A stretch of 64,000 nt of DNA, taken from positions 38,353 to 102,352 of IMG/VR virus record IMGVR_UViG_3300020411_000980; one strand, given 5' to 3'. The notes beneath the pieces are model-generated. The model ran no database searches. It saw only the letters and a list, made by a program, of their open reading frames with translations, and was not told the origin of the DNA. This DNA is from a virus. Lineage: Duplodnaviria; Caudoviricetes. Each line of letters starts with the position of its first letter. The stretch's first letter is position 1. A program made the translations under genes and the position numbers. Positions 59 through 63,878 of the stretch are shown here, one piece after another.

Positions 59-1558
59 CTAATTGATACCGTCAGTATTATATAGGACATCATTATAATA
101 GTCAATCGGTCTTGGCATAAAAGCAGCGATCTCCTTTCCTTCAGTGATTCTCTTCTCTACAGCAGCATCTAAGATAGGTAGGAAGTCACCACCAAACTCT
201 CGATCATAATGTGCTTCCATATCCATAACTTCCTTCCTACCAATAATAGTATAACCTAGACCTGCCATCACAAACTGCATACCAATAAACAAATCATTTA
301 ATGTTGTTGGTACATCACGACAGTCAATATTATTTAATGTGTGGAATGGTACTGAAGTTGCAGCATCCCAATATGGTGTGTCGTCTTTGTATGCTGCTGT
401 GAAATGATGTACGACAAAATCTCTGAATGTCATAAACTTGACGTGACACGCTGCATTGAACCAGTCACGTTGTAATCCTGATATAGTATTTCTCTTAGGA
501 TCAGCAAACTGTATGAAATTAAATAAGAACTCGTGTACTGAGAACAGACCACCTGATTCTAATGGTTCAATGAAACCAGCAGATAGTCCGATTGCTATTG
601 TATTACCCACCCATATCTTTTCTCTCATACCTGTTGGCCAACGTAGGTATCTAAAATCTTCATCAGGTGCATCAGGGCAACCTAAATGTGCCTTAAACTC
701 CTTTAGTGCAAAGGCTTTATCCTGAAACTTTGAACTGAAATTATAACCTGTCCCAATACGAGACCAAGTTGGTACAGTCCAGACCCAACCACTTGACAGT
801 GCAGTGACACGTGTGTAGCTCGTAAGTTCCCGTTCTTTATCAACATACTCCCGTCTTGTGCACCACGTACTGTCATTGAGTAACACGTCTCTCCAGTCGT
901 CCCAGGGCACTCCCAGGCGGTTCATCAAAATTGCTCTGAATCCTGTGCAGTCTATGAATAGGTCAGCAGTTACCTCTCTACCATCATCAAGAGTTAGTTT
1001 TGTTATATTATCTCCCTCCGTGTCAATCGTATCTACTGTCTCTCTAATATAATTTAAACCACGTGGGATACAAAATCTATCCTTTAGATACTTAGCAAAC
1101 TTAGTAGCATCAATATGATAACCAACTAACGTGTCTATGTGTGGTGTATATAATTTTCCCTGTTCAGATACTACAGCAGCATTAGAGAATACATTCTGAA
1201 ATGTTGTATTAGATGGTTGTCTATGGTACTTCCAAATATAATAGTCTAAGGGTGGAATATTAGTATCATAAGAACCAAAAGGGTACTGCCACGGTTGGTC
1301 AGTACCCCAATTTTCAAATCGAATGCTGTTCTTATATGTTGCGTCACACGCTGGCATCCACTCTTTATCTTCGAGTTCCAGATACCTAATGAATGTATTA
1401 AAATGCTGTGTTGTAGATTCCCCTACCCCTATAGTTCCGACTAGAGGAGACTCTATCAACGTAATATTTTTAGTGCCCTCAAAATGTTTAAGTAGCACTG
1501 ATGCTGTCATCCACCCTGCACTGCCACCTCCGACAATACAGATGTTATTAAATTTCAT
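59..1558 (-). CDS. prnA: Flavin-dependent tryptophan halogenase-like protein
   Basis: GGGSAGWMTA, GVGEST, catalytic-Lys region ATYK, GWVWTVP (WxWxIP), FIEPLESGG. Confidence 0.9.
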   Translation of the reverse strand: MKFNNICIVGGGSAGWMTASVLLKHFEGTKNITLIESPLVGTIGVGESTTQHFNTFIRYLELEDKEWMPACDATYKNSIRFENWGTDQPWQYPFGSYDTNIPPLDYYIWKYHRQPSNTTFQNVFSNAAVVSEQGKLYTPHIDTLVGYHIDATKFAKYLKDRFCIPRGLNYIRETVDTIDTEGDNITKLTLDDGREVTADLFIDCTGFRAILMNRLGVPWDDWRDVLLNDSTWCTRREYVDKERELTSYTRVTALSSGWVWTVPTWSRIGTGYNFSSKFQDKAFALKEFKAHLGCPDAPDEDFRYLRWPTGMREKIWVGNTIAIGLSAGFIEPLESGGLFSVHEFLFNFIQFADPKRNTISGLQRDWFNAACHVKFMTFRDFVVHHFTAAYKDDTPYWDAATSVPFHTLNNIDCRDVPTTLNDLFIGMQFVMAGLGYTIIGRKEVMDMEAHYDREFGGDFLPILDAAVEKRITEGKEIAAFMPRPIDYYNDVLYNTDGIN

Positions 1559-10883: not shown

Positions 10884-12209
10884 TTACCAGAGTCCTACGA
10901 AGTGATTTTGAAGTCTTAGTCTGCCACCAAAGTCAGGAGCAGAAATTGGTCCACCAAAGCTAACACCTAGTGTTCCAACGTTTTCAGTAGATAACAGAGT
11001 AGCGTCTGCATCTGGGAACTTAATTGATCTCGTTCCTGTTATATTATCTATGACCAATCTAACTTGGTTTTGGTCATTAGTAGCATCAATAAGGACAAAA
11101 TCTTTTGCAGATTTTGCTTCAAGTACCTGAGTTGCTTTTGTAGTTACAACTATATTATTATCCGCAATAGGAACATTAAGGTTCGCACTTGGGAATTCAT
11201 AACGAAGTATTGTAGCACCAGACTGATTACTTAAATCAAACTGAATACGCTTACTAATATCAGTACCATCAGCGAACCGAGGATCAGCGTAATCTTTGTT
11301 AGTAAATGTCTGTGTAGCTCCAGTACCTGCAACTGTTAATGATTGATCAGGCCAAGTAACTATACGATCAGACGTTACGTCAGGTGAAACAAATGTAACC
11401 TGTGGTGTTGGGTTATTAGGATCACCAGACTCAATATTAGATATCGAAGGATTGATAAGGTTTTTATTACTAATATTTTGTTCAGTAATAGTATCAATCA
11501 GTGTTGACTGTGATGCTGAAGTACCATAATCAGGAAGTCTGTAAATGTGGGTTACAGGTGCTTCCCACGAGTCAGTTTCAAACAATGCTATCTTACCAGC
11601 ATTAGATGAACCAACAATCTGTAGGTTACCATCCTGAATGATGATAGTCTTATTACTAATAGTCTGTGCGGTATCGTTACCTAACAGAGTTGTAGATGTA
11701 AAACTACCTGTACTTGGTAAAGCGAACGATCTAATTCCAGCTCCAGTTGATACACCAGAGATTTCAAACTTTGCTTTCTTATCAGGGTTCTGATCGTCAG
11801 CAAGGAAGAAGTTTGTATCCTGGAATTCTGCAGGACCATTTACAAGGAACTTACCAGAACCCTGTGGTCTCATATCAATGTTTACATTGGATGACGTTGT
11901 GTCACCTGCAATGAATCTAATCGTAGCAGAACCATCAGCATTATCTTGCTTCTTATAGTACATACTTGATGTACCGAAAGCAAGACCTAGCTCGTTATAT
12001 GCGTCTTGATAGAGTCCTGTGTCCCTATCCAAGTCAAAGCATAATCCTGGCTGTGATTGACTTCCTGCACCAACTCCTTTAAAGATCTGATTAATCTTTG
12101 CCTTACGGTTAGGAATCAGTGGATCGGAAATAACAACAGGAAGAACTGCTTCTCCTGTTAACACACCATCTGCTAGAGTGTCTAATTGTGAAATTCTTTT
12201 GGTTCCCAC
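10884..12209 (-). CDS. Virion structural/fibre protein
   Basis: KRISQL start, FDLDRDTGLY, repeated QTxxNK motifs; TATAAATA near 12238-12245. Confidence 0.65.
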   Translation of the reverse strand: MGTKRISQLDTLADGVLTGEAVLPVVISDPLIPNRKAKINQIFKGVGAGSQSQPGLCFDLDRDTGLYQDAYNELGLAFGTSSMYYKKQDNADGSATIRFIAGDTTSSNVNIDMRPQGSGKFLVNGPAEFQDTNFFLADDQNPDKKAKFEISGVSTGAGIRSFALPSTGSFTSTTLLGNDTAQTISNKTIIIQDGNLQIVGSSNAGKIALFETDSWEAPVTHIYRLPDYGTSASQSTLIDTITEQNISNKNLINPSISNIESGDPNNPTPQVTFVSPDVTSDRIVTWPDQSLTVAGTGATQTFTNKDYADPRFADGTDISKRIQFDLSNQSGATILRYEFPSANLNVPIADNNIVVTTKATQVLEAKSAKDFVLIDATNDQNQVRLVIDNITGTRSIKFPDADATLLSTENVGTLGVSFGGPISAPDFGGRLRLQNHFVGLW

Positions 12210-12263
12210 TAACTCTATTCGCTATTACGTACAGTTTTATTTATAACTCTATCAAAGGCGGGT

Positions 12264-35671: not shown

Positions 35672-35876
35672 CCTGGACAGTTTGTGTGGGTTTCGTTATA
35701 TTATATAGTGTTTTATCCAATCTTGCAACCTCTGCTAAAGGACTCTTAAAATATCGTCGTATTTTCTTAAGTTCTTTATTCATTTTTGCTTGGTCTCCAT
35801 CTGCTCTCTTCAATCCTCTGTTGATTGCTTGGAGTTCCATTGTTGACTTTAGTAGTCTCCTATCTGCTGCATCCAT
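35607..35876 (-). CDS. Hypothetical protein
   Basis: 89-aa ORF coupled to the upstream stop. Confidence 0.5.
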   Translation of the reverse strand: MDAADRRLLKSTMELQAINRGLKRADGDQAKMNKELKKIRRYFKSPLAEVARLDKTLYNITKPTQTVQDEQKGADAAGFNSIDGESSQA

Positions 35877-38800
35877 TAATCTACCTCCGTTGCTAGGATG
35901 TCAAACCACCTCGATTGAGTTGGTACATAGCTGTTTTGATTACTATACCACACCTGACTGTTTTTGTCGTGCATTGACTGATAGATTGCATACCTAGCGT
36001 TACGTTGGAACCTTGCGTTGGTAGCATCTCTTACCTGTACCTTCTTAGGTAGTCCAGTCTGCACTGGGAAGTATGGTGAGTTTGGTTCCTTACCATTAGT
36101 ATATTGCAATCTTTCAGGTGGCCAAGAGATCTGTTGTATGTGTCCTTCAGCATACCTCTTACCATAACTTGTTACTGAGTGGATCCTTATGTTACCAAAC
36201 CATCCATACTTCTTAAACTTATAGGTATCACCTGCTTGATAGTACTCTTGTCTGGTAACTCTTATACGTAATCTATATTCCAATCCATTCTTCTCCTTAT
36301 AATCTGTAAAGAATAGGACATCATTACCTAGGAGAGATTGTTGTAACCAATATTGATGGAAGGACTCTGCCTTACCTGTCTTATACCTAAAGAAACTAGC
36401 AAAGATTGAATCCATATTAACTACGAACTCATTAGTCTGTACAACCTGTTGGTCTACAACCAATACATCTAACTGTCTCGGTGTTGATTGATCTCTCTCG
36501 TGTGATGCTTGTATCTTAATGTCTTGAATCCTACCTTGTGTACTGCTAGTTGCAGGACATTCAATGTCATTGATACCTGTGACCTTAAAACCTATGTAAT
36601 AAGATCCAACATATTTGGATAGACCAGTAGTCTTATTATACTTACCAACAAATAATTTACACTCATCATCAACATAGTATCCACCCTTACCCCAGTCAAT
36701 TACTTCTACCAACTTCCAGTTAGTCTCTTCAGCCTGAGCATCGTGGACTGTCCATTGAAGTTTAACTGTGAAATCATAGTCACCAGTCGTAATAATATAT
36801 CCTGTGTCACCAGTAGTCATATCTGCTATTGGTGTACTTCCAATAACTTTAAGTTCACTGACCTGATTTGCACCACGTACTTGTAGTTCATTGGTATTAA
36901 CTACTTGATTAGTCATCACAGTAGTATAGTTCTCTTTAGTTACATCATCACCATCTTCTTCAAAGTTAAACAACTGAATAGTATAAGGTAAACCACAAGG
37001 TTCTGTTGGTTCGTGTGATGCTAAGTTACCATCGTTCTGTGCAGGGTTATTAGTTCTGTAACTACTTGACTGTGTTATCAACAATAACTCCCAAGTGTTT
37101 AGGAACTTCTTAGTATTAGCATCCCTTAATGACATAGCAGGTGAAACCCTACCATTATAATGTCCTGAATCTATAGAATCTAACTTCCAAGTGATACGAT
37201 CACCTTCTTCTACACTGAAGGACAGTAAAGGTGTACCAATCTTCTTCCACTTACTTACATCTTCTTGCTTCGTATATATTTGGGTACCATTCTTATGAAG
37301 TGACCAAGTAAATTTAGTACAGTCACCCCAACCACCTGTCATACCACCGTGTGATCTGATCTCTAGGTCTGCATCCTTAAGTGCAGTAACATTCTGTGTA
37401 CAAGCAGTACTGAATGCAACAGTACCAGTACAAGCAGCACATCCATAATCATTCTCTCCTTCCATCTGTCCACACTCAGTCCTTGTCATTGAACAACTGA
37501 CAAACTGTTGATCAAAGACTCTCTCTTCACACTTATCAACAGAAGTGATGTCCTCATAGACTGGGTTGGCATCTCTATCAAAGACATAGCATTGTATTCC
37601 TTCATAAAGATACTCACTATCTCCATAACGTAAATGATATGACTGTTTCATATCATTATAATCATCGTCACCATTTAATAAGTCTTCCCAATATTGCCAA
37701 GTTCTATCAGGCCACTTGGTCATATCTTTACCACCAGGATTCAAATGCTTTTGTGAGAACCAAGCATTATTATTCTGTGCAGATCCACTCTGGTCTACTC
37801 TCCACCCACCATTAAGGGTACTAAAAGTTACTGCATCACCACGAGAAGTTCCACGTCCATCTCCGTCAGGTATCATAAAGAATCCTAATTTGCAAGGGAT
37901 GTATTGATTCAGTTCATCAGCTGGTACTTTGTAAGTGAACGTACCACTAGCATCAGTTGCGTTCTCTAGTATAACTCTACCGTGTACAGGTTCATCGTTA
38001 GCATTACAAAGATAGAATCCCATTGTGTTGTCATAACTTGCTGATCCCTGTCTACAATTAAAAGTAAAGTTTAGATAGGTCTCTGCCTTACTTGATAGCA
38101 TATAATATCCTTCCTCTAGGTTAGCTTCAATAGGAGGACCACCAATAGGAGTCAGAGTATACATATGATCCTGACTTTCAGGGGAGTAATACCTATAAAG
38201 AGCCACAGGAGATTCTCCATCCATCATCTCTGAAATCATATCCTGTTTGTCTGTGAACCCGTAGAACATTATCTCATCCCGTGCACCGAACCCTTGAGCA
38301 TCCATCGTTGCTTTCTCACCAGCTGGGTCAGTGGTAAGCATATGATCTACTGCTTGAGATGAGTATGACACGTACACAGGGAACGCACCACGTGCCTGTT
38401 GCACGTTGTGTGCATAGAACATAGGTGTACTGTTCTGTATGTACCCAGCTGGGGCTGTCGGGCTCAAGCTGTACATATGATCAGAAGATATGTTGCTAGA
38501 TAGAATACTAAACCTACCGTTAACATCAGAACCGTGTCCATCTCTGAATACGACAGTCTTATTAGTACCGTACTCTTGATTCACCTCAATATTATATCCA
38601 CCAGTGGGGTGTAAACCTCCATAAGTTATGGGATAATTTCCTGCGGTTAATGAGAGAGTCTTTGTCGTCTTTCCACGGGTACCTGAACGGGTAAATGTAG
38701 TACCATCAACAGTAATAGTATCTACAGCAGTGCCAGCAGTATACTCTTGATCTTTCCATCTATGCTCCAAGGTACAGAGACACGTGCCACTACCTGTTAC

Positions 38801-39433
38801 TGTAATAGTATCTTTGTCACTAAAACTAGCAGTAGCTGTAGGAGTAGCACCTAATATATGTTCGTATACTGGTACTCTATCTGTTACACAATCCTGTACA
38901 CATATTTTCTTTGTTGTACCAAACATTGAAGATGGTACAAATGAATCGCAGTCTGCTGCTGGTGGTTTCCAAGCACCACCAACGTAAGGTTTAAAGACAC
39001 ACTTCAAATGTTCTTTAATACAATCCTCTAAGTCAGGGTTCTTCTCGTGGTCACAAGATATCTCTTCACCATTCTCACCGAAACATATGTTAGGGGTACC
39101 TGGATTGTCTGTTGTTGGTATTGTTAATCTTATCTTGTCTATCGATGGTACTGGCCAACCGTGTCCAGTTAGCTGAGGTAATATGAAACCCCAATCAATT
39201 TCAAATGTATCATCATCGTCATCGTCATCATCGTCTTTAAAGTTTGGCTTCTTAGGTGTGAGTTGACCGTAACACTGTCCAATAAGATCTTCGATGACAG
39301 CATTAACAGTATTAGGTGCAGCTCCACCACCAGGTGCACCAACAGGACCTCCACCTGACGCAACGGGTTCAGCACTTTCTACTACGTCATCAGGATCACA
39401 ATTTTGTTCGAACCAGGCGTTATTGCCAGACAT
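35876..39433 (-). CDS. Large multidomain structural/surface protein
   Basis: 1185 aa; LYRYY...DHMYT repeats; WEDL..GDDDYNDM (DUF4114-like); late promoter 39454-39459. Confidence 0.65.
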   Translation of the reverse strand: MSGNNAWFEQNCDPDDVVESAEPVASGGGPVGAPGGGAAPNTVNAVIEDLIGQCYGQLTPKKPNFKDDDDDDDDDTFEIDWGFILPQLTGHGWPVPSIDKIRLTIPTTDNPGTPNICFGENGEEISCDHEKNPDLEDCIKEHLKCVFKPYVGGAWKPPAADCDSFVPSSMFGTTKKICVQDCVTDRVPVYEHILGATPTATASFSDKDTITVTGSGTCLCTLEHRWKDQEYTAGTAVDTITVDGTTFTRSGTRGKTTKTLSLTAGNYPITYGGLHPTGGYNIEVNQEYGTNKTVVFRDGHGSDVNGRFSILSSNISSDHMYSLSPTAPAGYIQNSTPMFYAHNVQQARGAFPVYVSYSSQAVDHMLTTDPAGEKATMDAQGFGARDEIMFYGFTDKQDMISEMMDGESPVALYRYYSPESQDHMYTLTPIGGPPIEANLEEGYYMLSSKAETYLNFTFNCRQGSASYDNTMGFYLCNANDEPVHGRVILENATDASGTFTYKVPADELNQYIPCKLGFFMIPDGDGRGTSRGDAVTFSTLNGGWRVDQSGSAQNNNAWFSQKHLNPGGKDMTKWPDRTWQYWEDLLNGDDDYNDMKQSYHLRYGDSEYLYEGIQCYVFDRDANPVYEDITSVDKCEERVFDQQFVSCSMTRTECGQMEGENDYGCAACTGTVAFSTACTQNVTALKDADLEIRSHGGMTGGWGDCTKFTWSLHKNGTQIYTKQEDVSKWKKIGTPLLSFSVEEGDRITWKLDSIDSGHYNGRVSPAMSLRDANTKKFLNTWELLLITQSSSYRTNNPAQNDGNLASHEPTEPCGLPYTIQLFNFEEDGDDVTKENYTTVMTNQVVNTNELQVRGANQVSELKVIGSTPIADMTTGDTGYIITTGDYDFTVKLQWTVHDAQAEETNWKLVEVIDWGKGGYYVDDECKLFVGKYNKTTGLSKYVGSYYIGFKVTGINDIECPATSSTQGRIQDIKIQASHERDQSTPRQLDVLVVDQQVVQTNEFVVNMDSIFASFFRYKTGKAESFHQYWLQQSLLGNDVLFFTDYKEKNGLEYRLRIRVTRQEYYQAGDTYKFKKYGWFGNIRIHSVTSYGKRYAEGHIQQISWPPERLQYTNGKEPNSPYFPVQTGLPKKVQVRDATNARFQRNARYAIYQSMHDKNSQVWYSNQNSYVPTQSRWFDILATEVD

Positions 39434-57151: not shown

Positions 57152-57979
57152 TTAACTACCAAATGTTAGCGTCGCAGCTCCATTTGTATACTTAGTCTCA
57201 GCACCCTTACTGGAGTTAAGAACACAACGATACTTGTAACCGTTTAATGTAGTACCACCTAGACTACTATAAGCAAGTGTTGCTGTAGTGAAGTCTGCGT
57301 ATGTGATACCAGTATCAAGGTCAGCCTTAATGTCTACCCAACGAGTAGTTGCATTTGCTGTCTGACGTTGCCACTTGTATGTGATAGTACCTGACTGATC
57401 CACTGTTGCAGCAGCAACGAATGTTCCAGCACCACTAGAGGATGTAGAGTTTGCAGGTTGTGTACCGACTGTGATTGTCTCGTTGACATCAGCGTCAATA
57501 GTATCCTGAGCAAAGTCACCTGCTGAACCAGCAGCAACCTTGAGGGGAACTAAACACTCTGCCTTGTGACGCTCGGTACCATTATATGTTTGATAAGTTT
57601 GATACAACCACCAACCAGGTCCAGTGATACCACGAGTTTTGTTTGATGCGATACCATCTTCAGATGTATCAACAAAAACTAAATCGTAGTTTGTGTTACT
57701 GTCACCACCTTTGATGACATATTCTGCAACTGCTTTAGGAGGTGTTCTCCTTATAACGGATGCAGCAGCAACTGTTGCTGTGCTTCCTGCATAATTCTTG
57801 TGCAATTCTATTGATGTAGTACTGGTTACTTGCTTAACAATGTAGTTTACACTACTAATATTAAGTACGTCACCTACATTTACAGAGTCCGCAGCATTTT
57901 TAGATACTGTAGCATCACCATTGGTGACACCTATAGTATTACTAAAGGCTGCAGCATCTATTTTTCCGTGGACTGCCAT
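57152..57979 (-). CDS. Structural protein with C-terminal Ig-like domain (Hoc-like)
   Basis: TQPAN, ITYKWQR, NGYKYRCVL; late promoter 58013-58020. Confidence 0.65.
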   Translation of the reverse strand: MAVHGKIDAAAFSNTIGVTNGDATVSKNAADSVNVGDVLNISSVNYIVKQVTSTTSIELHKNYAGSTATVAAASVIRRTPPKAVAEYVIKGGDSNTNYDLVFVDTSEDGIASNKTRGITGPGWWLYQTYQTYNGTERHKAECLVPLKVAAGSAGDFAQDTIDADVNETITVGTQPANSTSSSGAGTFVAAATVDQSGTITYKWQRQTANATTRWVDIKADLDTGITYADFTTATLAYSSLGGTTLNGYKYRCVLNSSKGAETKYTNGAATLTFGS

Positions 57980-58024
57980 TGGTATCTCCAGAGATTTGTT
58001 ACTTCGTTTTATTATTTATATGTA

Positions 58025-58378: not shown

Positions 58379-59956
58379 CTACTTACCAAAGTTGGGGAAG
58401 TGCTTTTTAAATAGGGCAGATGCTTCCTTGTGCTTACCCTTGTTAGTGAGTGACTTGGTTTGTTTCAAGACATCTCTCTTCTTCTGTTGCTCAGGAGTAG
58501 GATTATCTCCTTCCTGTATTTCTTCTAGATCGAATCCTAACCTAGCTCTCCAGTTGCTAGCTTCGGGATCCCTTAGATTGTTCTGGTCGTGCGCTTTTGT
58601 CTCTTGCTCTCCCAGAATTCTCCGAATTCTTTGAGTTCTTGATAGGTCCATAGTGGTTTCCAAAGTAGTTTCTTCACCCATACGACTAGCAACATATCCA
58701 GACGCTTTGGACACAGCACGTGCTGAGATTCCAACCGCCTTCTTGACACCACGTTTTATCTTACTACCAGTTGAGGATGAAGATGATGATGTGGTACCGC
58801 CACCGCTAGAGGATGATGACGAGCTACTCTCCTTCTTCTTATCACCACCAGTTACTATGGTAGGTGCTTTTGGTCCTGAAGATTTAGATGAGGACTTAGA
58901 TAGAGTGGAGGTAGATGATGAGGAGTCTTTTTTCTGACCGCCAGAAGAACGGATTTTATTCAGAAGTTCCTCACCTTTCCTATGTGTCTCTGACTTCTTA
59001 GAATCAGATGACGAGGAAGACTTGGTTGATGATTTCTCTAGAGCTGCCTTCTTACTTTTCTCTTTGGCAGCAGAGTATTCACCTGCGACTTTGCCAGCAG
59101 TCTGTGCTGCTTTCTTACCGACTGCCTTGACCGTTTTCTTCACGGCTGATCCAGCAGACTTGGCAACGTCTTTTGCTTGGGCTTTAACACTAGGTTTAGG
59201 CTTAGAAGCAAGTCGCTTCTTCGCTATAGCACCAGCATCTCTGCCTGGTTTCTCCTTTTGAGGAGCTTGTACAGCAACGTGTGGACGTGCTGAATGCTTG
59301 TTGGGAGCTTCAGTTAGTTGCTCACCTTCTATGGTAACATCTTCCTTCTTAGTGAGGACAGCATTGTGACCATACTTAGCTCGTAGGTTCTTTACAGTAA
59401 GTTTAAATGCTTTCTGTGAGTTAGCCTGAGCCTTTCTTTGTTCTTCTGGTGTCAACCCCTTGGTACCACCAGTGGATTTTCTATTAGAAGGGTTGTCTCC
59501 ATCGCCAGGTCCTGGGAGTCCTAACTCTCTCTTCCTGTCTTTGATGCGATCATACTCTTCTTCATCGAGGACTTCAACTTCTTCCTTGGTGTCAACTAGC
59601 CCCGTATTCTTGACACCACCGCTAAAACCCGCAGCTTTCTTCGCATCCCCCTTGGCTTTGATAGAATTCTGTTGGGCATTCACAGGTCCTTCTGTGCTCT
59701 TAGGTTCTTTGATCGTATCGATCTTACCTGATGCTGCACTAGGTTTGTTATCTATAGTAGCTGCATTAGCAGTCTTCTCTCGGAGTATACCAGCAATCTC
59801 CTTACAAGCGACAGTCTCTTTCAGACTAGCATCGATGTACATCTGTTGAGCTTCAACTGTAGAGTAGTTACGCTCTGCGTATTCCACTACATATGTTGCT
59901 CTAGTTACATCAGCTGGATTGTATTTAAGCAGTCTTCCTGCAAGTTTAAGATCCAT
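58379..59956 (-). CDS. Low-complexity Lys/Ser-rich probable internal head protein
   Basis: 525 aa; several (I/L)xE sites; late promoter 59980-59985. Confidence 0.55.
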   Translation of the reverse strand: MDLKLAGRLLKYNPADVTRATYVVEYAERNYSTVEAQQMYIDASLKETVACKEIAGILREKTANAATIDNKPSAASGKIDTIKEPKSTEGPVNAQQNSIKAKGDAKKAAGFSGGVKNTGLVDTKEEVEVLDEEEYDRIKDRKRELGLPGPGDGDNPSNRKSTGGTKGLTPEEQRKAQANSQKAFKLTVKNLRAKYGHNAVLTKKEDVTIEGEQLTEAPNKHSARPHVAVQAPQKEKPGRDAGAIAKKRLASKPKPSVKAQAKDVAKSAGSAVKKTVKAVGKKAAQTAGKVAGEYSAAKEKSKKAALEKSSTKSSSSSDSKKSETHRKGEELLNKIRSSGGQKKDSSSSTSTLSKSSSKSSGPKAPTIVTGGDKKKESSSSSSSSGGGTTSSSSSSTGSKIKRGVKKAVGISARAVSKASGYVASRMGEETTLETTMDLSRTQRIRRILGEQETKAHDQNNLRDPEASNWRARLGFDLEEIQEGDNPTPEQQKKRDVLKQTKSLTNKGKHKEASALFKKHFPNFGK

Positions 59957-59978
59957 TGGATTAAAAATTCCGATAGTA

Positions 59979-61208
59979 CTATTTAGTTTTTCTAAAATCG
60001 CTGAACTTTCTCAACGTAGGATTCATAGTAGTAAACCTACCAGTAGCCTGTCCAGGAGTCATATCCTGTAGTGCCTTCCTATATGTATCAGTTCCGACTT
60101 TCCAAGTGTTTCCACTTCCATCATCAGCAGAGAAATGTTGCTCATCAGGATCAACATCATTCTGTGTTACTTCATTAAGAGAGGTCAACCATACACGGAA
60201 TCTCCAACCGTGCTCATCTTCGAAGATGGCATAGTTAGTTCCACGATATACTACCTCACCTCTGACTCCAGTGTCAGTATGTTCTACTAGAGAACCCATC
60301 TGGAATACTTCTTGATTAACGTATGCTTCACGTAGACCTTGTTGATCTAACTTAGGAGCGATCTTCCAAAGTTCAGTTACCTTCTCAGTCTTCTTAGGTT
60401 CACCAGATGGTGTCTTCTCTTCAGAAGTTACACCCATACCTCTACGTACAGCATTCATTAAGTTAGATGCCAAAGACTCATCCCCACCAGGGATACCCTT
60501 AGCAAACTCTTTTAAGTTACCTTCTGCAGCAAACGCTCTCATCTTAGATGCTGACATACCTTCGGCACCTTCAGCATCAGGATCTCTAGAACCTGCAGAC
60601 TTAACCTCCAATCCTTCTTCAAAATTATATGCTACACCGTTGTACTTCTCTAGTAGTGTACTGAATTCAGACACCCTATCATCGCCAACGACCATAGTAA
60701 TAGCACTGTAGCCTTCTTCATTTAATGCATTTAATACATTAAAAATGTTCCCCATCGATTCATCATTCTGAATAGCATCAGCGTGCTCAGGGAACATCTT
60801 TTTCATATAGTTGATCTTCTCAACTGGTTGAAGAGGGTTTTGTTTAGGATCTACAGATCGTGAAGGATATATTCTATACTCTCCAGTCGATTCAGAAGCC
60901 ACCTTATCAAATACTTTTTGGTGACCTATCGTAGGAGGATTGAAACGACCAAAGGTAAGAGCTACTGCACCCTTATCTTCTACACTAGCATTTGCTTCGT
61001 CTTCGGCATAGCCGTTAGCAGCATCTTGTTGTACAACATCTGCCTCTTGCGGGTCAACAGGGACAAGCCTCTCTCCACCCTCTGATTTAGCAACTATAGT
61101 ACCAGATCTGTCTGCATAATAGCCGTGACCAACGTGTGACAAACCTCTCTTAGCAGCGGTCTCTCCAGCAACAGTCCTAGCTTCAGCAATGAAGTTAGTA
61201 AATTTCAT
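59979..61208 (-). CDS. HIGH-superfamily (cytidylyltransferase/NMNAT-like) nucleotidyltransferase
   Basis: TFGRFNPPTIGH, NPL...K, VGDDR, MSASKMR. Confidence 0.8.
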   Translation of the reverse strand: MKFTNFIAEARTVAGETAAKRGLSHVGHGYYADRSGTIVAKSEGGERLVPVDPQEADVVQQDAANGYAEDEANASVEDKGAVALTFGRFNPPTIGHQKVFDKVASESTGEYRIYPSRSVDPKQNPLQPVEKINYMKKMFPEHADAIQNDESMGNIFNVLNALNEEGYSAITMVVGDDRVSEFSTLLEKYNGVAYNFEEGLEVKSAGSRDPDAEGAEGMSASKMRAFAAEGNLKEFAKGIPGGDESLASNLMNAVRRGMGVTSEEKTPSGEPKKTEKVTELWKIAPKLDQQGLREAYVNQEVFQMGSLVEHTDTGVRGEVVYRGTNYAIFEDEHGWRFRVWLTSLNEVTQNDVDPDEQHFSADDGSGNTWKVGTDTYRKALQDMTPGQATGRFTTMNPTLRKFSDFRKTK

Positions 61209-61240
61209 CTAATCTACGTCGTTTCCTATAGTATATTTAT

Positions 61241-62428
61241 TCATCCCCAGTTCTTTGCTACTGTGAAGTTCGACTTAGAGAACTCCATCCTATCTACTAG
61301 CTTCAAAGAAGTACCAGATTTTATAGCAACAAATCCTTCTGGAGCAGTGACTCTATACCCATCGTCTGTACGAATAAAGGTACCAATGTCCTGTACTTTA
61401 GACAGTTTCTTGACTACCATATTCTTAGCAGCAATGAGATTTAAATAAGAAGCCACAGTCATATATATGGCTCTATTATATGTCTTGATAAATTTTAAAC
61501 CATCTGCCTGTACCTTCTGCCACTTGCTCTTAGCACTAGGAGTCTTAACTGAATTGATCTGTTTAGTTAATGCTTGTTGATAGTAGTTTGCAAAGTTAGC
61601 AGTCACAGCCTTAGTATTAGTAAGGTTCTTACCTCCACGAATGTATGAGTTAAAGAACTGTTTAAACATTACTGCTAACATAAACTTACCCTGACCAGTA
61701 TCCTTTAGGATATCAAGAAAAGCAGATGCTTGTTTAAGAGATCCACTAGCACGATTAACTGCTGCATTATATGCTGTCTTCTCTGCTGCAGTAAACTGTG
61801 AAGCACCAGTAGCATCAGTAAAGTTTGAAGAGAACACGTGTACAGTTGCACTACTAGCAGGTGTCTTCACTCCAAACGTTGCAGTAAGTTCACTCATTGT
61901 TGCACCAGTATATTTGGTATGAAATACTATGCCCAATGAACTTGCCTTTACCTTTGCACCTAATGGACTGGTAGATGGTATAGCATACGTGATTGTATTA
62001 GGTTGAAAGACTACACAAGACTCACCATTAACTTGTCCTACTGTCTTATCAGTAGTGTACAATAGATCTCCCTGTAGTATTCCTGTAAGATTAAGAGAGG
62101 GAAGATACTTCAAACACGCTTTTAATTTCTTATTTAATTCTCCTGCATCATAGTAGAAGTCAACCTGTTCATCAGAATAACATATTTTTGGATTGTTTAT
62201 ATTGAAGACTGACTTAGTTCCTACAAAGAACTCTCCATTCTCAGGGTTGGTACCACATACTACAGCAGGTGCACCATCCCATTTAGTAGTAACATTTATA
62301 CTACTGCTAGATGGTCCTGTCAACATCTTACCTAATGAGTTCAGGAAGTTAATAGCATTCTTACCTCCTGCTGAACCATTGTTCAGGATGTCATCTTCAA
62401 GGTGTTCGAGGTGGGTATTCTTAGACAT
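61241..62428 (-). CDS. RNA-ligase-like covalent nucleotidyltransferase (DUF6267-type)
   Basis: KWDG, LQGDLL, EGFVAI, LKLVDRMEF in ligase motif order. Confidence 0.6.
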   Translation of the reverse strand: MSKNTHLEHLEDDILNNGSAGGKNAINFLNSLGKMLTGPSSSSINVTTKWDGAPAVVCGTNPENGEFFVGTKSVFNINNPKICYSDEQVDFYYDAGELNKKLKACLKYLPSLNLTGILQGDLLYTTDKTVGQVNGESCVVFQPNTITYAIPSTSPLGAKVKASSLGIVFHTKYTGATMSELTATFGVKTPASSATVHVFSSNFTDATGASQFTAAEKTAYNAAVNRASGSLKQASAFLDILKDTGQGKFMLAVMFKQFFNSYIRGGKNLTNTKAVTANFANYYQQALTKQINSVKTPSAKSKWQKVQADGLKFIKTYNRAIYMTVASYLNLIAAKNMVVKKLSKVQDIGTFIRTDDGYRVTAPEGFVAIKSGTSLKLVDRMEFSKSNFTVAKNWG

Positions 62429-63878
62429 TTAATGAAAGATAATTCTTGAGTCGTGGTCCTTTCTCTACTAGGTTACGGAAGTATCCGTTACCTTTGTTTG
62501 CTGCTGCTTCAAACTTCAGACGTAAGTTGATTAAAGATCTCTTACTATCATCACCAGTAGCATTCTTATCAAGTAACTGGATGATAGGTTTGTCTGGCAT
62601 CTGGTATGACTTGAAGTTGGTGGTAGCAGAACTGGACATCTTCACTTCTAATTCTAACTGTCCACCCTCCAGCAAGGCACCCAGTCTACTGAAATCGTAA
62701 ACAATTGAAACGTCCCCTGCTAGTTCTACTATCTTAACATTCTTTTCACCCTTAGTAGCAAAGAAATTTATACCTCTATCCAACCTCCCAAAGAAATCTG
62801 CTGCTGAAGGACCATTAACATCCTTCTTTATCTGCTTGAAAGCCCAATCATATGCTACCTGTACAGCGTGGATGCAACGTTGCTGTTCTATCTCACCTTT
62901 CTTTAATGCTTTAGCCCAATTATTAACCACTGTCTGATCACCTGCTGGATCTCTATTCATCAATTGAGACCAGAAGAATGTCTGTTTATCTAGATCCCAT
63001 CCACCAGTCTGTCCAAACTGTCCTACAGATCTCTTCAATGATACCTGTGTGATATCCATCATCTCTCCACGTGAACCACTGATAGGAAATTCTATATCAT
63101 CATTGATATGTAATTTTATATCAACCTTAGTTCCTTTCTGATCACTGTTACCATCAGCTTCAATTTTAATATTATCATACATTAGATTTGTATAACACTC
63201 TGTAGCTAGAGTACTAATCTCTTTACCATTACAATAATGACAGCAACTCTTATACATACGTGCTCTTGTCGTTACTTCATCTGGTTTAGTACTACAGAAG
63301 AAATCTAGATCTGCCTTTGCTAATTTAATGAATAGTACTACGTCATCATCTGGTACAGCAGCACCTTTATATCCAGGTGGTATAAAGTTCTTTGATTTAA
63401 ATGTTAACTCTATATGATTAACTGTCTTGGCTTTGATACAACGATGTATCATTGCTGCTAGGTCAGTAGGAGTAATATCTTTATCCTTCTTCTCAAACCT
63501 AGCAGCCATAGCTGCTGCCAATATACCTTCAGCTACATTACCCAAATTATATTTTGCTCTACTAGTCTGTTTAATATTTTCCTTAGATAAATGCTTGAGA
63601 TTAATATCTATTAGACCTGTCTTGGTACCATACCTACCAGTATAAGCAGGTAGGATAACACTACGATTTAATTTACCTGTACCTTGGAAAGCAGCTGAAA
63701 GATCAGCAGGTGTCTTTACCTTTTTCCATCTATCATCATCAGCATTAATCTTAACTTCATTCTTAGCCCAACCCAAAGAATCATCAACCTTAAATGGTTT
63801 ATGATCTTTAACCATAGAATTAAAGTTAGTCCAGTAGTCTACACTTTTATTAAGATCAGCTATTGAGATGACAGCCAT
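62421..63878 (-). CDS. Hypothetical protein, possible PD-(D/E)XK nuclease
   Basis: GNVAEG, TKVDI...QVSLK. Confidence 0.5.
   Translation of the reverse strand: MAVISIADLNKSVDYWTNFNSMVKDHKPFKVDDSLGWAKNEVKINADDDRWKKVKTPADLSAAFQGTGKLNRSVILPAYTGRYGTKTGLIDINLKHLSKENIKQTSRAKYNLGNVAEGILAAAMAARFEKKDKDITPTDLAAMIHRCIKAKTVNHIELTFKSKNFIPPGYKGAAVPDDDVVLFIKLAKADLDFFCSTKPDEVTTRARMYKSCCHYCNGKEISTLATECYTNLMYDNIKIEADGNSDQKGTKVDIKLHINDDIEFPISGSRGEMMDITQVSLKRSVGQFGQTGGWDLDKQTFFWSQLMNRDPAGDQTVVNNWAKALKKGEIEQQRCIHAVQVAYDWAFKQIKKDVNGPSAADFFGRLDRGINFFATKGEKNVKIVELAGDVSIVYDFSRLGALLEGGQLELEVKMSSSATTNFKSYQMPDKPIIQLLDKNATGDDSKRSLINLRLKFEAAANKGNGYFRNLVEKGPRLKNYLSLNV

Follow-up and report, generated by a model that had tools for sequence, protein, structure and literature searches.

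A DUF6267 protein of T4-like cyanophages has the predicted fold and motifs of a divergent polynucleotide ligase and is paired with an HxGH nucleotidyltransferase

We analysed a 64,000-nucleotide stretch of phage DNA (Duplodnaviria; Caudoviricetes; positions 38,353 to 102,352 of IMG/VR record IMGVR_UViG_3300020411_000980), referred to as the window, and in it a gene of the DUF6267 family on the minus strand at 61241..62428. The window is part of a T4-like cyanomyovirus, with psbA, transaldolase, nrdA/nrdB, a gp32-type single-stranded-DNA-binding protein, a gp61-type primase, and baseplate and tail-fibre genes; the source record is a 102 kb fragment with an estimated completeness of 55%. The open reading frame (ORF), given in a preliminary description of the sequence as that of a hypothetical protein with an RNA-ligase motif series, was recovered at the same coordinates, with an ATG start and 395 residues. 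Its product matches Pfam DUF6267 (PF19782) with E 2.4e-129 and 432.4 bits against a cut-off of 27, and residues 4-392 cover profile positions 1-376 of 376, so that it is a full-length member; it also falls in PHROG 455, function unknown. An exhaustive HMMER search identified 2,577 cluster representatives of the family (50% identity level, E <= 1e-3), and DUF6267 is present in 471 of 50,697 sequenced phage records; the gene is carried by nearly all marine T4-like cyanophages. The name 'DUF6267' was not found in any paper in a full-text literature search. The main survey of RNA-repair ligases, reportedly that of Burroughs and Aravind in 2016, may describe divergent ligase families; it lies outside the titles and passages of the cyanophage literature in which the gene is nowhere called a ligase.

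The six motif strings listed in the preliminary description (TTKWDG, FVGTKS, ILQGDLL, GIVFH, EGFVAI and LKLVDRMEF) sit where it placed them, in ligase/capping-enzyme order, and we computed their residue positions and their conservation in a family alignment (A1) of 109 of the 150 representatives listed, out of 2,577. Motif I, TTKWDG (residues 47-52; 62273..62290), carries the candidate nucleotidylated Lys49 at the end of the predicted strand 45-49; K49 and D51 are found in 109 of 109 sequences and G52 in 108. The motif Ia-like string FFVGTKS (residues 67-73, with FVGTKS at 68-73; 62210..62230), labelled by its order, has F67 in 106, F68 in 109, V69 in 103 and K72 in 108 of 109 sequences. The motif III-like ILQGDLL (residues 117-123; 62060..62080) lies on strand 117-124 (Q119 103, G120 108 and D121 108 of 109), and the motif IIIa-like GIVFHTKY (residues 166-173, with GIVFH at 166-170; 61910..61933) on strand 165-174 (G166 107, H170 109, T171 107 and Y173 105 of 109). 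Motifs IV and V, PEGFVAIK and SLKLVDRMEFS, occupy residues 363-384 (61277..61342), with EGFVAI at 364-369 and LKLVDRMEF at 375-383 (E364 108, G365 109, K376 109, D379 100 and R380 108 of 109). The Lys directly after EGFVAI (K370) is not conserved in the family, and Asp is the commonest residue there (61/109). Ahead of motif I lies a family-specific His/acid motif, THLEHLED (residues 5-12; 62393..62416), with H6 in 106, H9 in 109, E11 in 102 and D12 in 95 of 109 sequences. Nine columns of A1 are invariant (H9, K49, D51, G59, F68, Y148, H170, G365 and K376). Among the 45 positions conserved in at least 90% of sequences, 18 fall within the 39 motif residues of the preliminary description, compared to 4.4 expected (hypergeometric p = 4e-9), which shows that the motif series is the conserved core of the family rather than a chance pattern in one sequence. 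Of the features that mark the covalent nucleotidyltransferase superfamily, DUF6267 has the KxDG of motif I, an acidic residue in motif III (Asp, rather than Glu) and the EG of motif IV; other ligases have Glu where DUF6267 has the motif III Asp.

A template-free AlphaFold2 model of the window protein built on A1 (model 1) has a mean predicted local distance difference test score (pLDDT) of 94.1 and a predicted template modelling score of 0.92. Comparison of this model with 48,161 representatives of the PDB by VIA-align placed the nick-sealing RNA ligase NgrRnl of Naegleria gruberi at the top (Z 8.2 over 183 residues, root-mean-square deviation (rmsd) 4.0 A), followed by T4 Rnl2 (7.4), REL1 (7.2) and Trl1 (7.1); among the best 50 rows, 21 are ligases, and the remainder are mostly short helical bundles that match an insert in the model. 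When VIA-align was run on the 998 best Foldseek chains, rows 1-21 were all ligases, with six NgrRnl entries at 8.2-8.7, T4 Rnl1 at 7.4, REL1 at 7.2, Rnl2 at 6.9 and capping enzymes at 4.5. In a library of viral structures, members of the family lead the matches, including a 591-residue S-PM2 protein fused to a cytidyltransferase-like domain, and the first named matches outside the family are phage RNA ligases (E 5e-3 to 0.03). Because Z values of 6-9 fall in the grey zone of the tool, which warns that such values may reflect a common arrangement, a second model was made of a natural short form, the 320-residue Syn9 gp183-type protein of a viral contig locus, which is 34% identical to the window protein (model 2; alignment A4, 59 relatives; pLDDT 88.7). 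Only 19 of the 48,161 chains reach Z >= 5 against model 2, and rows 1-28 hold nothing but ligases and a capping enzyme, with NgrRnl at 8.3, Trl1 7.2, T4 Rnl1 7.2, Rnl2 6.7, T4 DNA ligase 5.5, and the Chlorella virus and T7 ligases 5.1. Foldseek likewise returned 43 ligase or capping-enzyme entries among the best 50 PDB rows for model 2, and capping enzymes are more distant from the models than ligases are (Z 3.5-4.5).

The case for the fold stands because the match lists are nearly pure in ligases, not because of any single score. The covalent-nucleotidyltransferase (ligase/capping) fold suggested by the preliminary description is borne out by this comparison, together with the invariant Lys of KxDG. 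We take it as established, for the predicted structures, that DUF6267 has the ligase/capping nucleotidyltransferase fold with RNA ligases as its nearest structures (Z 6.4-8.7). The helical insert expected between motifs IIIa and IV is also present, as DSSP assigns five helices to residues 214-343 (61400..61789), between strands 165-199 and 349-377. This domain of ~130 residues, inserted in the nucleotidyltransferase domain and shorter in Syn9-type forms, contains invariant N260 and K335. The chain ends 19 residues past K376 of motif V, with one helix there and no OB or appended domain. DUF6267 thus most likely belongs, as a divergent branch, to the superfamily of covalent nucleotidyltransferases (polynucleotide ligases), and it consists of the nucleotidyltransferase domain alone plus the helical insert.

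Directly downstream, at 59979..61208 on the same strand, lies a gene for a 409-residue HxGH (NMNAT-like) nucleotidyltransferase, where NMNAT is nicotinamide mononucleotide adenylyltransferase; it matches phrog_395 'cytidyltransferase' with E 1.8e-88. The motifs G87-R-F-N-P-P..G95-H96 and S219-A-S-K..R224 are invariant in 39 sequences, so that both the HxGH motif and the second, ISxxxxR-type motif of the superfamily are present. Pfam CTP_transf_like gives 17.1 bits for the window partner, below the cut-off of 21, and fused or neighbouring homologues pass it with 27.8-42.1 bits. Comparison with PDB profiles yields weak matches (E 0.09-0.97), and its best family matches, weak as they are, are without exception to NMNAT models; cyanophage papers name the partner NMNAT (passages of PMC9602691 and PMC12801897). 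The two genes are adjacent in Syn9, S-SZBM1 and the distant viral contigs L040 and L042, and in cyanophage records with Synechococcus, Cyanophage and Prochlorococcus names DUF6267 is counted 371, 61 and 24 times and the HxGH gene 375, 61 and 24 times, respectively. In many phages they are fused. Among the 27 long DUF6267 members of the 150 listed, 7 contain Pfam CTP_transf_like, 10 have extensions with a direct blastp match to the window HxGH protein, and 18 are connected to it by single linkage, at either terminus. In contig L045 a phrog_415 'polynucleotide kinase'-like gene stands between the pair, and a Zeta/AAA_33 kinase domain forms part of the HxGH protein there; in P0099 a DUF6267 member is fused to an AAA_33/Zeta P-loop kinase. 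A complex prediction for DUF6267 and the HxGH domain (residues 60-285) scored 0.01, which is evidence neither way. The tie to the HxGH nucleotidyltransferase, which the preliminary description does not mention, is the strongest functional clue.

Three annotations attached to the HxGH protein and its relatives are recorded here as side observations. Its residues ~286-351 match phrog_4808 'ribonucleotide reductase alpha subunit' (E 3.7e-8), and the label 'NrdB ribonucleotide reductase A subunit' is attached to a fused homologue in phage metaG-MbCM1; the latter label looks like a propagated mis-annotation, with the same small C-terminal domain as its probable cause. The closest relative of the window HxGH protein (P0391, 90% identity) is filed at NCBI under a 'Euryarchaeota archaeon' metagenome bin; the contig probably comes from a phage and was placed in the archaeal bin in error.

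The HxGH protein begins with a capsid-targeting-like leader, MKFTNFIAEARTVAGE (61161..61208, minus strand), that closely matches the N-termini of T4 internal proteins, IPII starting with MKTYQEFIAEARVGAG and IPIII with MKTYQEFIAEASVV in the T4 record. A tag pattern written from the T4 leaders fits 30 of 39 HxGH homologues and 43 of 109 DUF6267 homologues; among the 88 window ORFs of at least 90 residues it fits one, the HxGH gene. From this likeness, the HxGH protein of this phage would be expected to be cut by the prohead protease and loaded into the head. The leader agrees with published virion proteomes that contain HxGH/'NMNAT' proteins: the 'NMNAT' of S-SCSM1 (passages of PMC9602691), S-SZBM1_140 with its neighbour _139 (Table 1 text of PMC9146016), and ORF154 of S-CREM2, where S-CBWM1 is mentioned too (passages of PMC10665884).

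On balance, and with a confidence not far above even, we favour the interpretation that DUF6267 is a strand-sealing enzyme that is nucleotidylated on Lys49 and is predicted to depend on its HxGH partner for the nucleotide donor. Lys49 of KWDG would accept a nucleoside monophosphate (NMP), most likely AMP, to form a covalent enzyme-NMP; the NMP would then be handed to a 5'-phosphate end, and attack by a 3'-OH would close the break. The HxGH partner would supply or regenerate the nucleotide donor, and in many phages the pair is probably head-loaded and delivered with the DNA, as drawn from the leader on the partner and on 43 of 109 DUF6267 homologues, the window copy not among them. The head-targeting-like leader on those homologues might instead mark an inactive, ligase-shaped scaffold that loads or holds the HxGH enzyme in the virion, and downstream neighbours of the gene are virion-associated in other cyanophages (passages of PMC9146016). 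We regard a scaffold as very improbable, since K49, D51, E364/G365 and K376, which are expected for catalysis, are invariant or nearly so across the family, and since the S-SZBM1 orthologue of DUF6267 (S-SZBM1_141, 47% identity) is unnamed in the main text and tables of PMC9146016, including its virion proteome table.

The genomic setting bears on what a strand-sealing DUF6267 might act on. In Syn9, S-SZBM1 and the window the gene lies in a replication block, with gp41 helicase/MazG on one side and gp61 primase/NrdA on the other. Profile searches with PF01068 and PF01653 were positive in none of five DUF6267 genomes and were positive in T4 and control genomes. Neither DNA ligase domains nor RNA ligase domains (PF09414, PF09511) were found in Syn9 (complete), S-SZBM1 (complete) or G001 (85% complete); G002 (100% complete) has no DNA ligase domains and an Rnl1-type gene, and G003 (32% complete) has no DNA ligase domains and an Rnl2-type gene. 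The positive control T4 has PF01068, PF09414 and PF09511, not PF01653, and no DUF6267 was found in it. PF01068 was also not found in the 102 kb fragment that is the window's own genome, which at 55% completeness is a weak negative. Passages of two reviews, PMC1079782 and PMC2984593, report no identified gp30 homologue in cyanomyoviruses, genomes described for twenty years as having no ligase at all, and Clokie et al. 2010 (PMC2984593, in part) wrote that these phages are without gp30 homologues 'or have distant homologues not yet identified'. With a canonical Rnl1 or Rnl2 elsewhere in 2 of the 5 genomes, it would be too simple to call DUF6267 'the' ligase of the group. Two side observations touch this inventory. 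The Rnl1-type match of G002 (G002:C1:151714-152136, in the genome of L045) contains one in-frame TAG and could be a split or broken gene or contain a recoded stop. In the T4 RefSeq record, gene 57B (L052:18952-19410) is labelled 'RNA ligase', which may be an annotation error, the label being at odds with what we take this gene to be.

As the substrate we prefer nicked duplexes, either phage DNA or DNA/RNA junctions, over broken tRNA, because the nearest structures are nick sealers, DNA ligases are missing and some of the phages already have an RNA ligase. The preliminary description had raised tRNA or RNA cut by host defences as a possible target, and an RNA repair ligase of this kind would rejoin tRNA or mRNA, of the phage or of the host, after cleavage by host anticodon nucleases or other RNase defences; in some phages the end-healing kinase would be fused to it or adjacent. 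T4 Rnl1 and Pnkp repair RNA cut by host nucleases. The nearest structures of DUF6267 are RNA ligases, including the tRNA ligases T4 Rnl1 and Trl1, 3 of 109 members have weak matches to Pfam RNA_lig_T4_1, DUF6267 lacks an OB domain just as RNA ligases do, and the P-loop kinase fusion of P0099 and the phrog_415 'polynucleotide kinase' neighbour in L045 would fit end healing. We nevertheless consider RNA repair possible but on the whole unlikely. It is somewhat weakened by the canonical Rnl1 or Rnl2 genes in two of the five genomes, and no kinase or phosphatase gene adjoins DUF6267 in the gene blocks of Syn9, S-SZBM1 or the window, so that a 2',3'-cyclic-phosphate/5'-OH break, which needs a kinase/phosphatase, could not be sealed. 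Moreover, the constant partner is an HxGH enzyme, and we know of no RNA repair pathway in which HxGH enzymes take part; the observed P-loop kinases could be nucleoside kinases, for which the kinase domain of NadR is a precedent. For a strand-sealing DUF6267 with its HxGH partner, we count the two kinase links in favour, as an end-healing connection.

Several results weigh against that interpretation. At the level of sequence, phmmer of the window protein against PDB sequences gave a chance match only, and a hidden Markov model of A1 gave low-complexity matches only. Comparison of A1 by hhalign with alignments of the T4 Rnl1 family (A2) and the T4 Rnl2 family (A3) gave probabilities of 3.1% and 0.1%, respectively, with the single T4 Rnl1 and Rnl2 sequences at most 3.1%, and with T4 gp30 nothing; with the helical-insert columns masked the probability was 3.5%, compared to 0.1-2.4% for reversed-profile controls. 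The sole stretch aligned by hhalign pairs PEGFVAIK..SLKLV with IEGYVAV..HFKIK of Rnl1, that is, E364/G365/K376 with T4 Rnl1 E227/G228/K240, which are invariant in the Rnl1 family alignment, and the weak matches to RNA_lig_T4_1 (PF09511), with a best E of 6.2e-4, do not include the window protein. With Foldseek, no PDB entry reached E <= 1e-3 for either model (T4 Rnl1 came tenth for model 1, with E 0.15, and Trl1 was best for model 2, with E 0.05), and the grey-zone Z values belong here as well. The putative motifs Ia, III and IIIa are assigned by order and by strand position in the model alone. As to the partner, no NMNAT (NadM/NadR/NadD) family cut-off is reached by it (16-18 bits at best for the window protein; the L045 homologue has 32.8 bits where the cut-off is 127), and the HxGH gene occurs without DUF6267 in jumbo phages of enterobacteria and pseudomonads, with no ligase-like gene annotated beside it in the two records RaK2 and PAC2. 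The window DUF6267 has no leader and starts with MSKNTHLEHLED, directly at the HLEHLED motif; S-SZBM1_141 is unnamed as stated above; two of the five genomes have a canonical RNA ligase; and a gene list of S-CREM2 includes a 'ligase', of unconfirmed kind and co-occurrence with DUF6267 (passages of PMC10665884).

The remaining difficulty is motif V. Its K376, within the LKLVDRMEF of the preliminary description, is invariant, but it is the only Lys: position 378 is Val in 95 and Ile in 12 of 109 sequences, so that the two-lysine KxK, which is invariant in the comparison alignments (K240 and K242 of Rnl1, K225 and K227 of Rnl2), is lacking in DUF6267. From the sequences, R380 (108/109) might substitute for the second Lys. 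Because of the single Lys of motif V, the Asp of motif III and the lack of an OB or appended domain, the chemistry may differ from ligation, and DUF6267 could be a nucleotidyltransferase that does not seal at all, in which Lys49 moves a nucleotide to a 5' end (adenylylated or capped), to a protein or to a small molecule linked to the partner. Such an activity would suit the non-canonical motifs V and III, the absence of an OB or appended domain that clamps nucleic acid, the tie to a small-molecule-type nucleotidyltransferase that stands alone in jumbo phages, and the capping enzymes, which share the fold. We think it unlikely, as the top structural neighbours are all strand-joining enzymes and the helical insert with its invariant N260 and K335 could be a substrate-binding module; to our knowledge, no enzyme of the ligase fold has a small molecule as its acceptor.

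The single Lys of motif V admits another reading, as the NAD+-dependent DNA ligase LigA also has a single motif V Lys. Reasoning by analogy with LigA, DUF6267 might take AMP from nicotinamide adenine dinucleotide (NAD+) and free nicotinamide mononucleotide (NMN), and the fused or adjacent NMNAT-like enzyme would remake NAD+ from NMN and ATP. The single-Lys motif V and the N-terminal His/acid motif would stand in for the NMN-binding domain of LigA. The T4-type leader would bring the kit into the capsid, from which it would enter the cell along with the genome, and the sealing of nicked phage DNA would begin at the outset of infection, even where defences had burnt NAD+. In structure LigA matches model 2 with Z 4.1 (4glx) and 3.7 (3jsl), and the window protein does not match PF01653, the LigA adenylation domain. 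We consider this NAD+-cycling kit a long shot; if true, marine T4-like cyanophages would have in DUF6267 the DNA ligase that has long been missing from them.

The genes and signals around the pair were also examined. Upstream lies an ORF of 485 residues (62421..63878, minus strand; phrog_3560, function unknown; no Pfam match) whose stop overlaps the DUF6267 start by 8 nucleotides (ATGTCTAA); the two are translationally coupled. In the ESM Atlas, the closest clusters with a name are labelled 'putative restriction endonuclease' (20 of 30 hits, with a score of 0.94; RE_HaeIII occurs in 19-24% of members), and a D..(E/S)xK-like pair (VDIKL...QVSLK) was seen by eye. We rejected this ORF as a third conserved partner, since the upstream ORFs of L040 and L045 are dissimilar to it and to each other. 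Downstream of the HxGH gene, 58379..59956 (minus strand) encodes a Lys/Ser/Ala-rich low-complexity protein of 525 residues (phrog_27523, phrog_764), which may be head cargo; S-SZBM1_139, in the same position, is the virion protein mentioned above (PMC9146016, in part), and the two share almost no sequence. A late-promoter-like ATAAATA heptamer (61234..61240, minus strand) lies between the DUF6267 and HxGH genes, 26 nucleotides upstream of the HxGH ATG; it is a weak hint only, because the 20 copies of the heptamer in the window show no enrichment over the 17.6 expected, and sigma-70-like sites are not enriched either (19 against 16.4 expected). The octamer TATAAATA, which we take to be the T4 late-promoter consensus, occurs 8 times in the window, not above chance (4.85 expected), and not upstream of any of the three genes; exact minus-strand copies lie just upstream of a 'head protein' ORF at 57152-57979 (58013-58020), a tail-fibre assembly ORF at 2099-2899 (2926-2933) and a virion protein ORF at 10884-12209 (12238-12245). 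RNA-library contigs from four runs cover 58379-63878 patchily, with one spanning the junction of the upstream ORF and DUF6267 (62365-62515) and the interior 61323-62242 uncovered; as carry-over of DNA is possible and strand and level are unreadable, they allow no inference about expression. Elsewhere in the window, a tryptophan-halogenase-like gene lies at 59-1558 (minus strand; phrog_2928, E 3.7e-130), and a minus-strand ORF of 1,185 residues at 35876-39433 (phrog_26996) has a short stretch that matches 'major head protein' families.

DUF6267 is a widespread family still under a 'DUF' label, and marine viruses of the greatest abundance include the T4-like cyanophages and the pelagiphages. If it is an active ligase, it would fill a gap in the phage replication and repair toolkit, would add to the superfamily an architecture in which a helical insert and a single-lysine motif V go with an obligate HxGH partner, and may explain the recurrent 'NMNAT' in purified cyanophage particles.

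Compared with known enzymes, the partner shares its GRFxPxxxGH with GRFQPFHKGH of the archaeal NMNAT MJ0541 and also has the second SxSKxR motif; unlike NadM/NadR it has a capsid-targeting-like leader and a small C-terminal domain, and all of its NMNAT scores are far below the cut-offs. DUF6267 itself departs from known ligases in its helical insert, its motif III Asp, its single motif V Lys, the lack of an OB domain and its N-terminal His/acid motif; the insert occupies the position between IIIa and IV, and other RNA ligases bear an appended domain instead. As profile comparisons with the Rnl1 and Rnl2 families are not significant, it is ligase-like in shape and motifs but a member neither of Rnl2 nor of the ATP-dependent DNA ligases, and probably not of Rnl1 or LigA. 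The ATP-dependent DNA ligases (T4 gp30, T7, Chlorella virus; Z 5.1-6.2) share the catalytic-domain fold and the KxDG of motif I, and LigA shares the fold (Z 3.7-4.1); DUF6267 differs from DNA ligases in having no OB domain and no PF01068 or PF01653 match, which led us to reject membership among the ATP-dependent enzymes (PF01068 plus OB), and from LigA in having no evident LigA-type Ia, zinc-finger, HhH or BRCT modules, though its N-terminal helices and HLEHLED motif might take the role of domain Ia.

Among RNA ligases, T4 Rnl2 (Z 6.4-7.4) and trypanosome REL1 (Z 5.8-7.2), which align over 168-188 residues, are nick sealers with a nucleotidyltransferase domain and a helical module. The label 'Rnl2-like' of the preliminary description was not supported by this comparison, as Rnl2 is no closer than NgrRnl/Rnl5 (8.2-8.7), T4 Rnl1 (6.5-7.4) or Trl1 (7.1-7.2). 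In addition, Pfam RNA_ligase does not match the window protein at E <= 10, and the hhalign probability against the Rnl2 alignment is 0.1%. Motif I reads KIHG in the Rnl2 family alignment and KxDG in DUF6267. Membership in the Rnl2 family (PF09414) was rejected: that family is also not among the 25 most matched by the 109 members, and its helical domain is appended at the C-terminus, whereas that of DUF6267 is inserted. For T4 Rnl1 (gp63) and the ligase domain of fungal Trl1, PF09511 is the only family with any sequence signal, and the rare DUF6267 members fused to a P-loop kinase add a likeness to Trl1; in PF09511 enzymes, however, the helical module is C-terminal rather than inserted, and the second Lys of the Rnl1 KxK (K242) aligns with Val378. 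The best match to both models is NgrRnl (Rnl5; PDB 5cot, 6vt1), with Z 8.2-8.7 over 178-184 residues and rmsd 3.8-4.1 A. It is titled a nick-sealing enzyme, and in both proteins motif V is not followed by an OB domain. The structural alignment shows 10-11% identity, and NgrRnl has an extra N-terminal domain (residues before 141 unaligned); the helical insert, the lone Lys of motif V and the N-terminal HLEHLED motif set DUF6267 apart from it.

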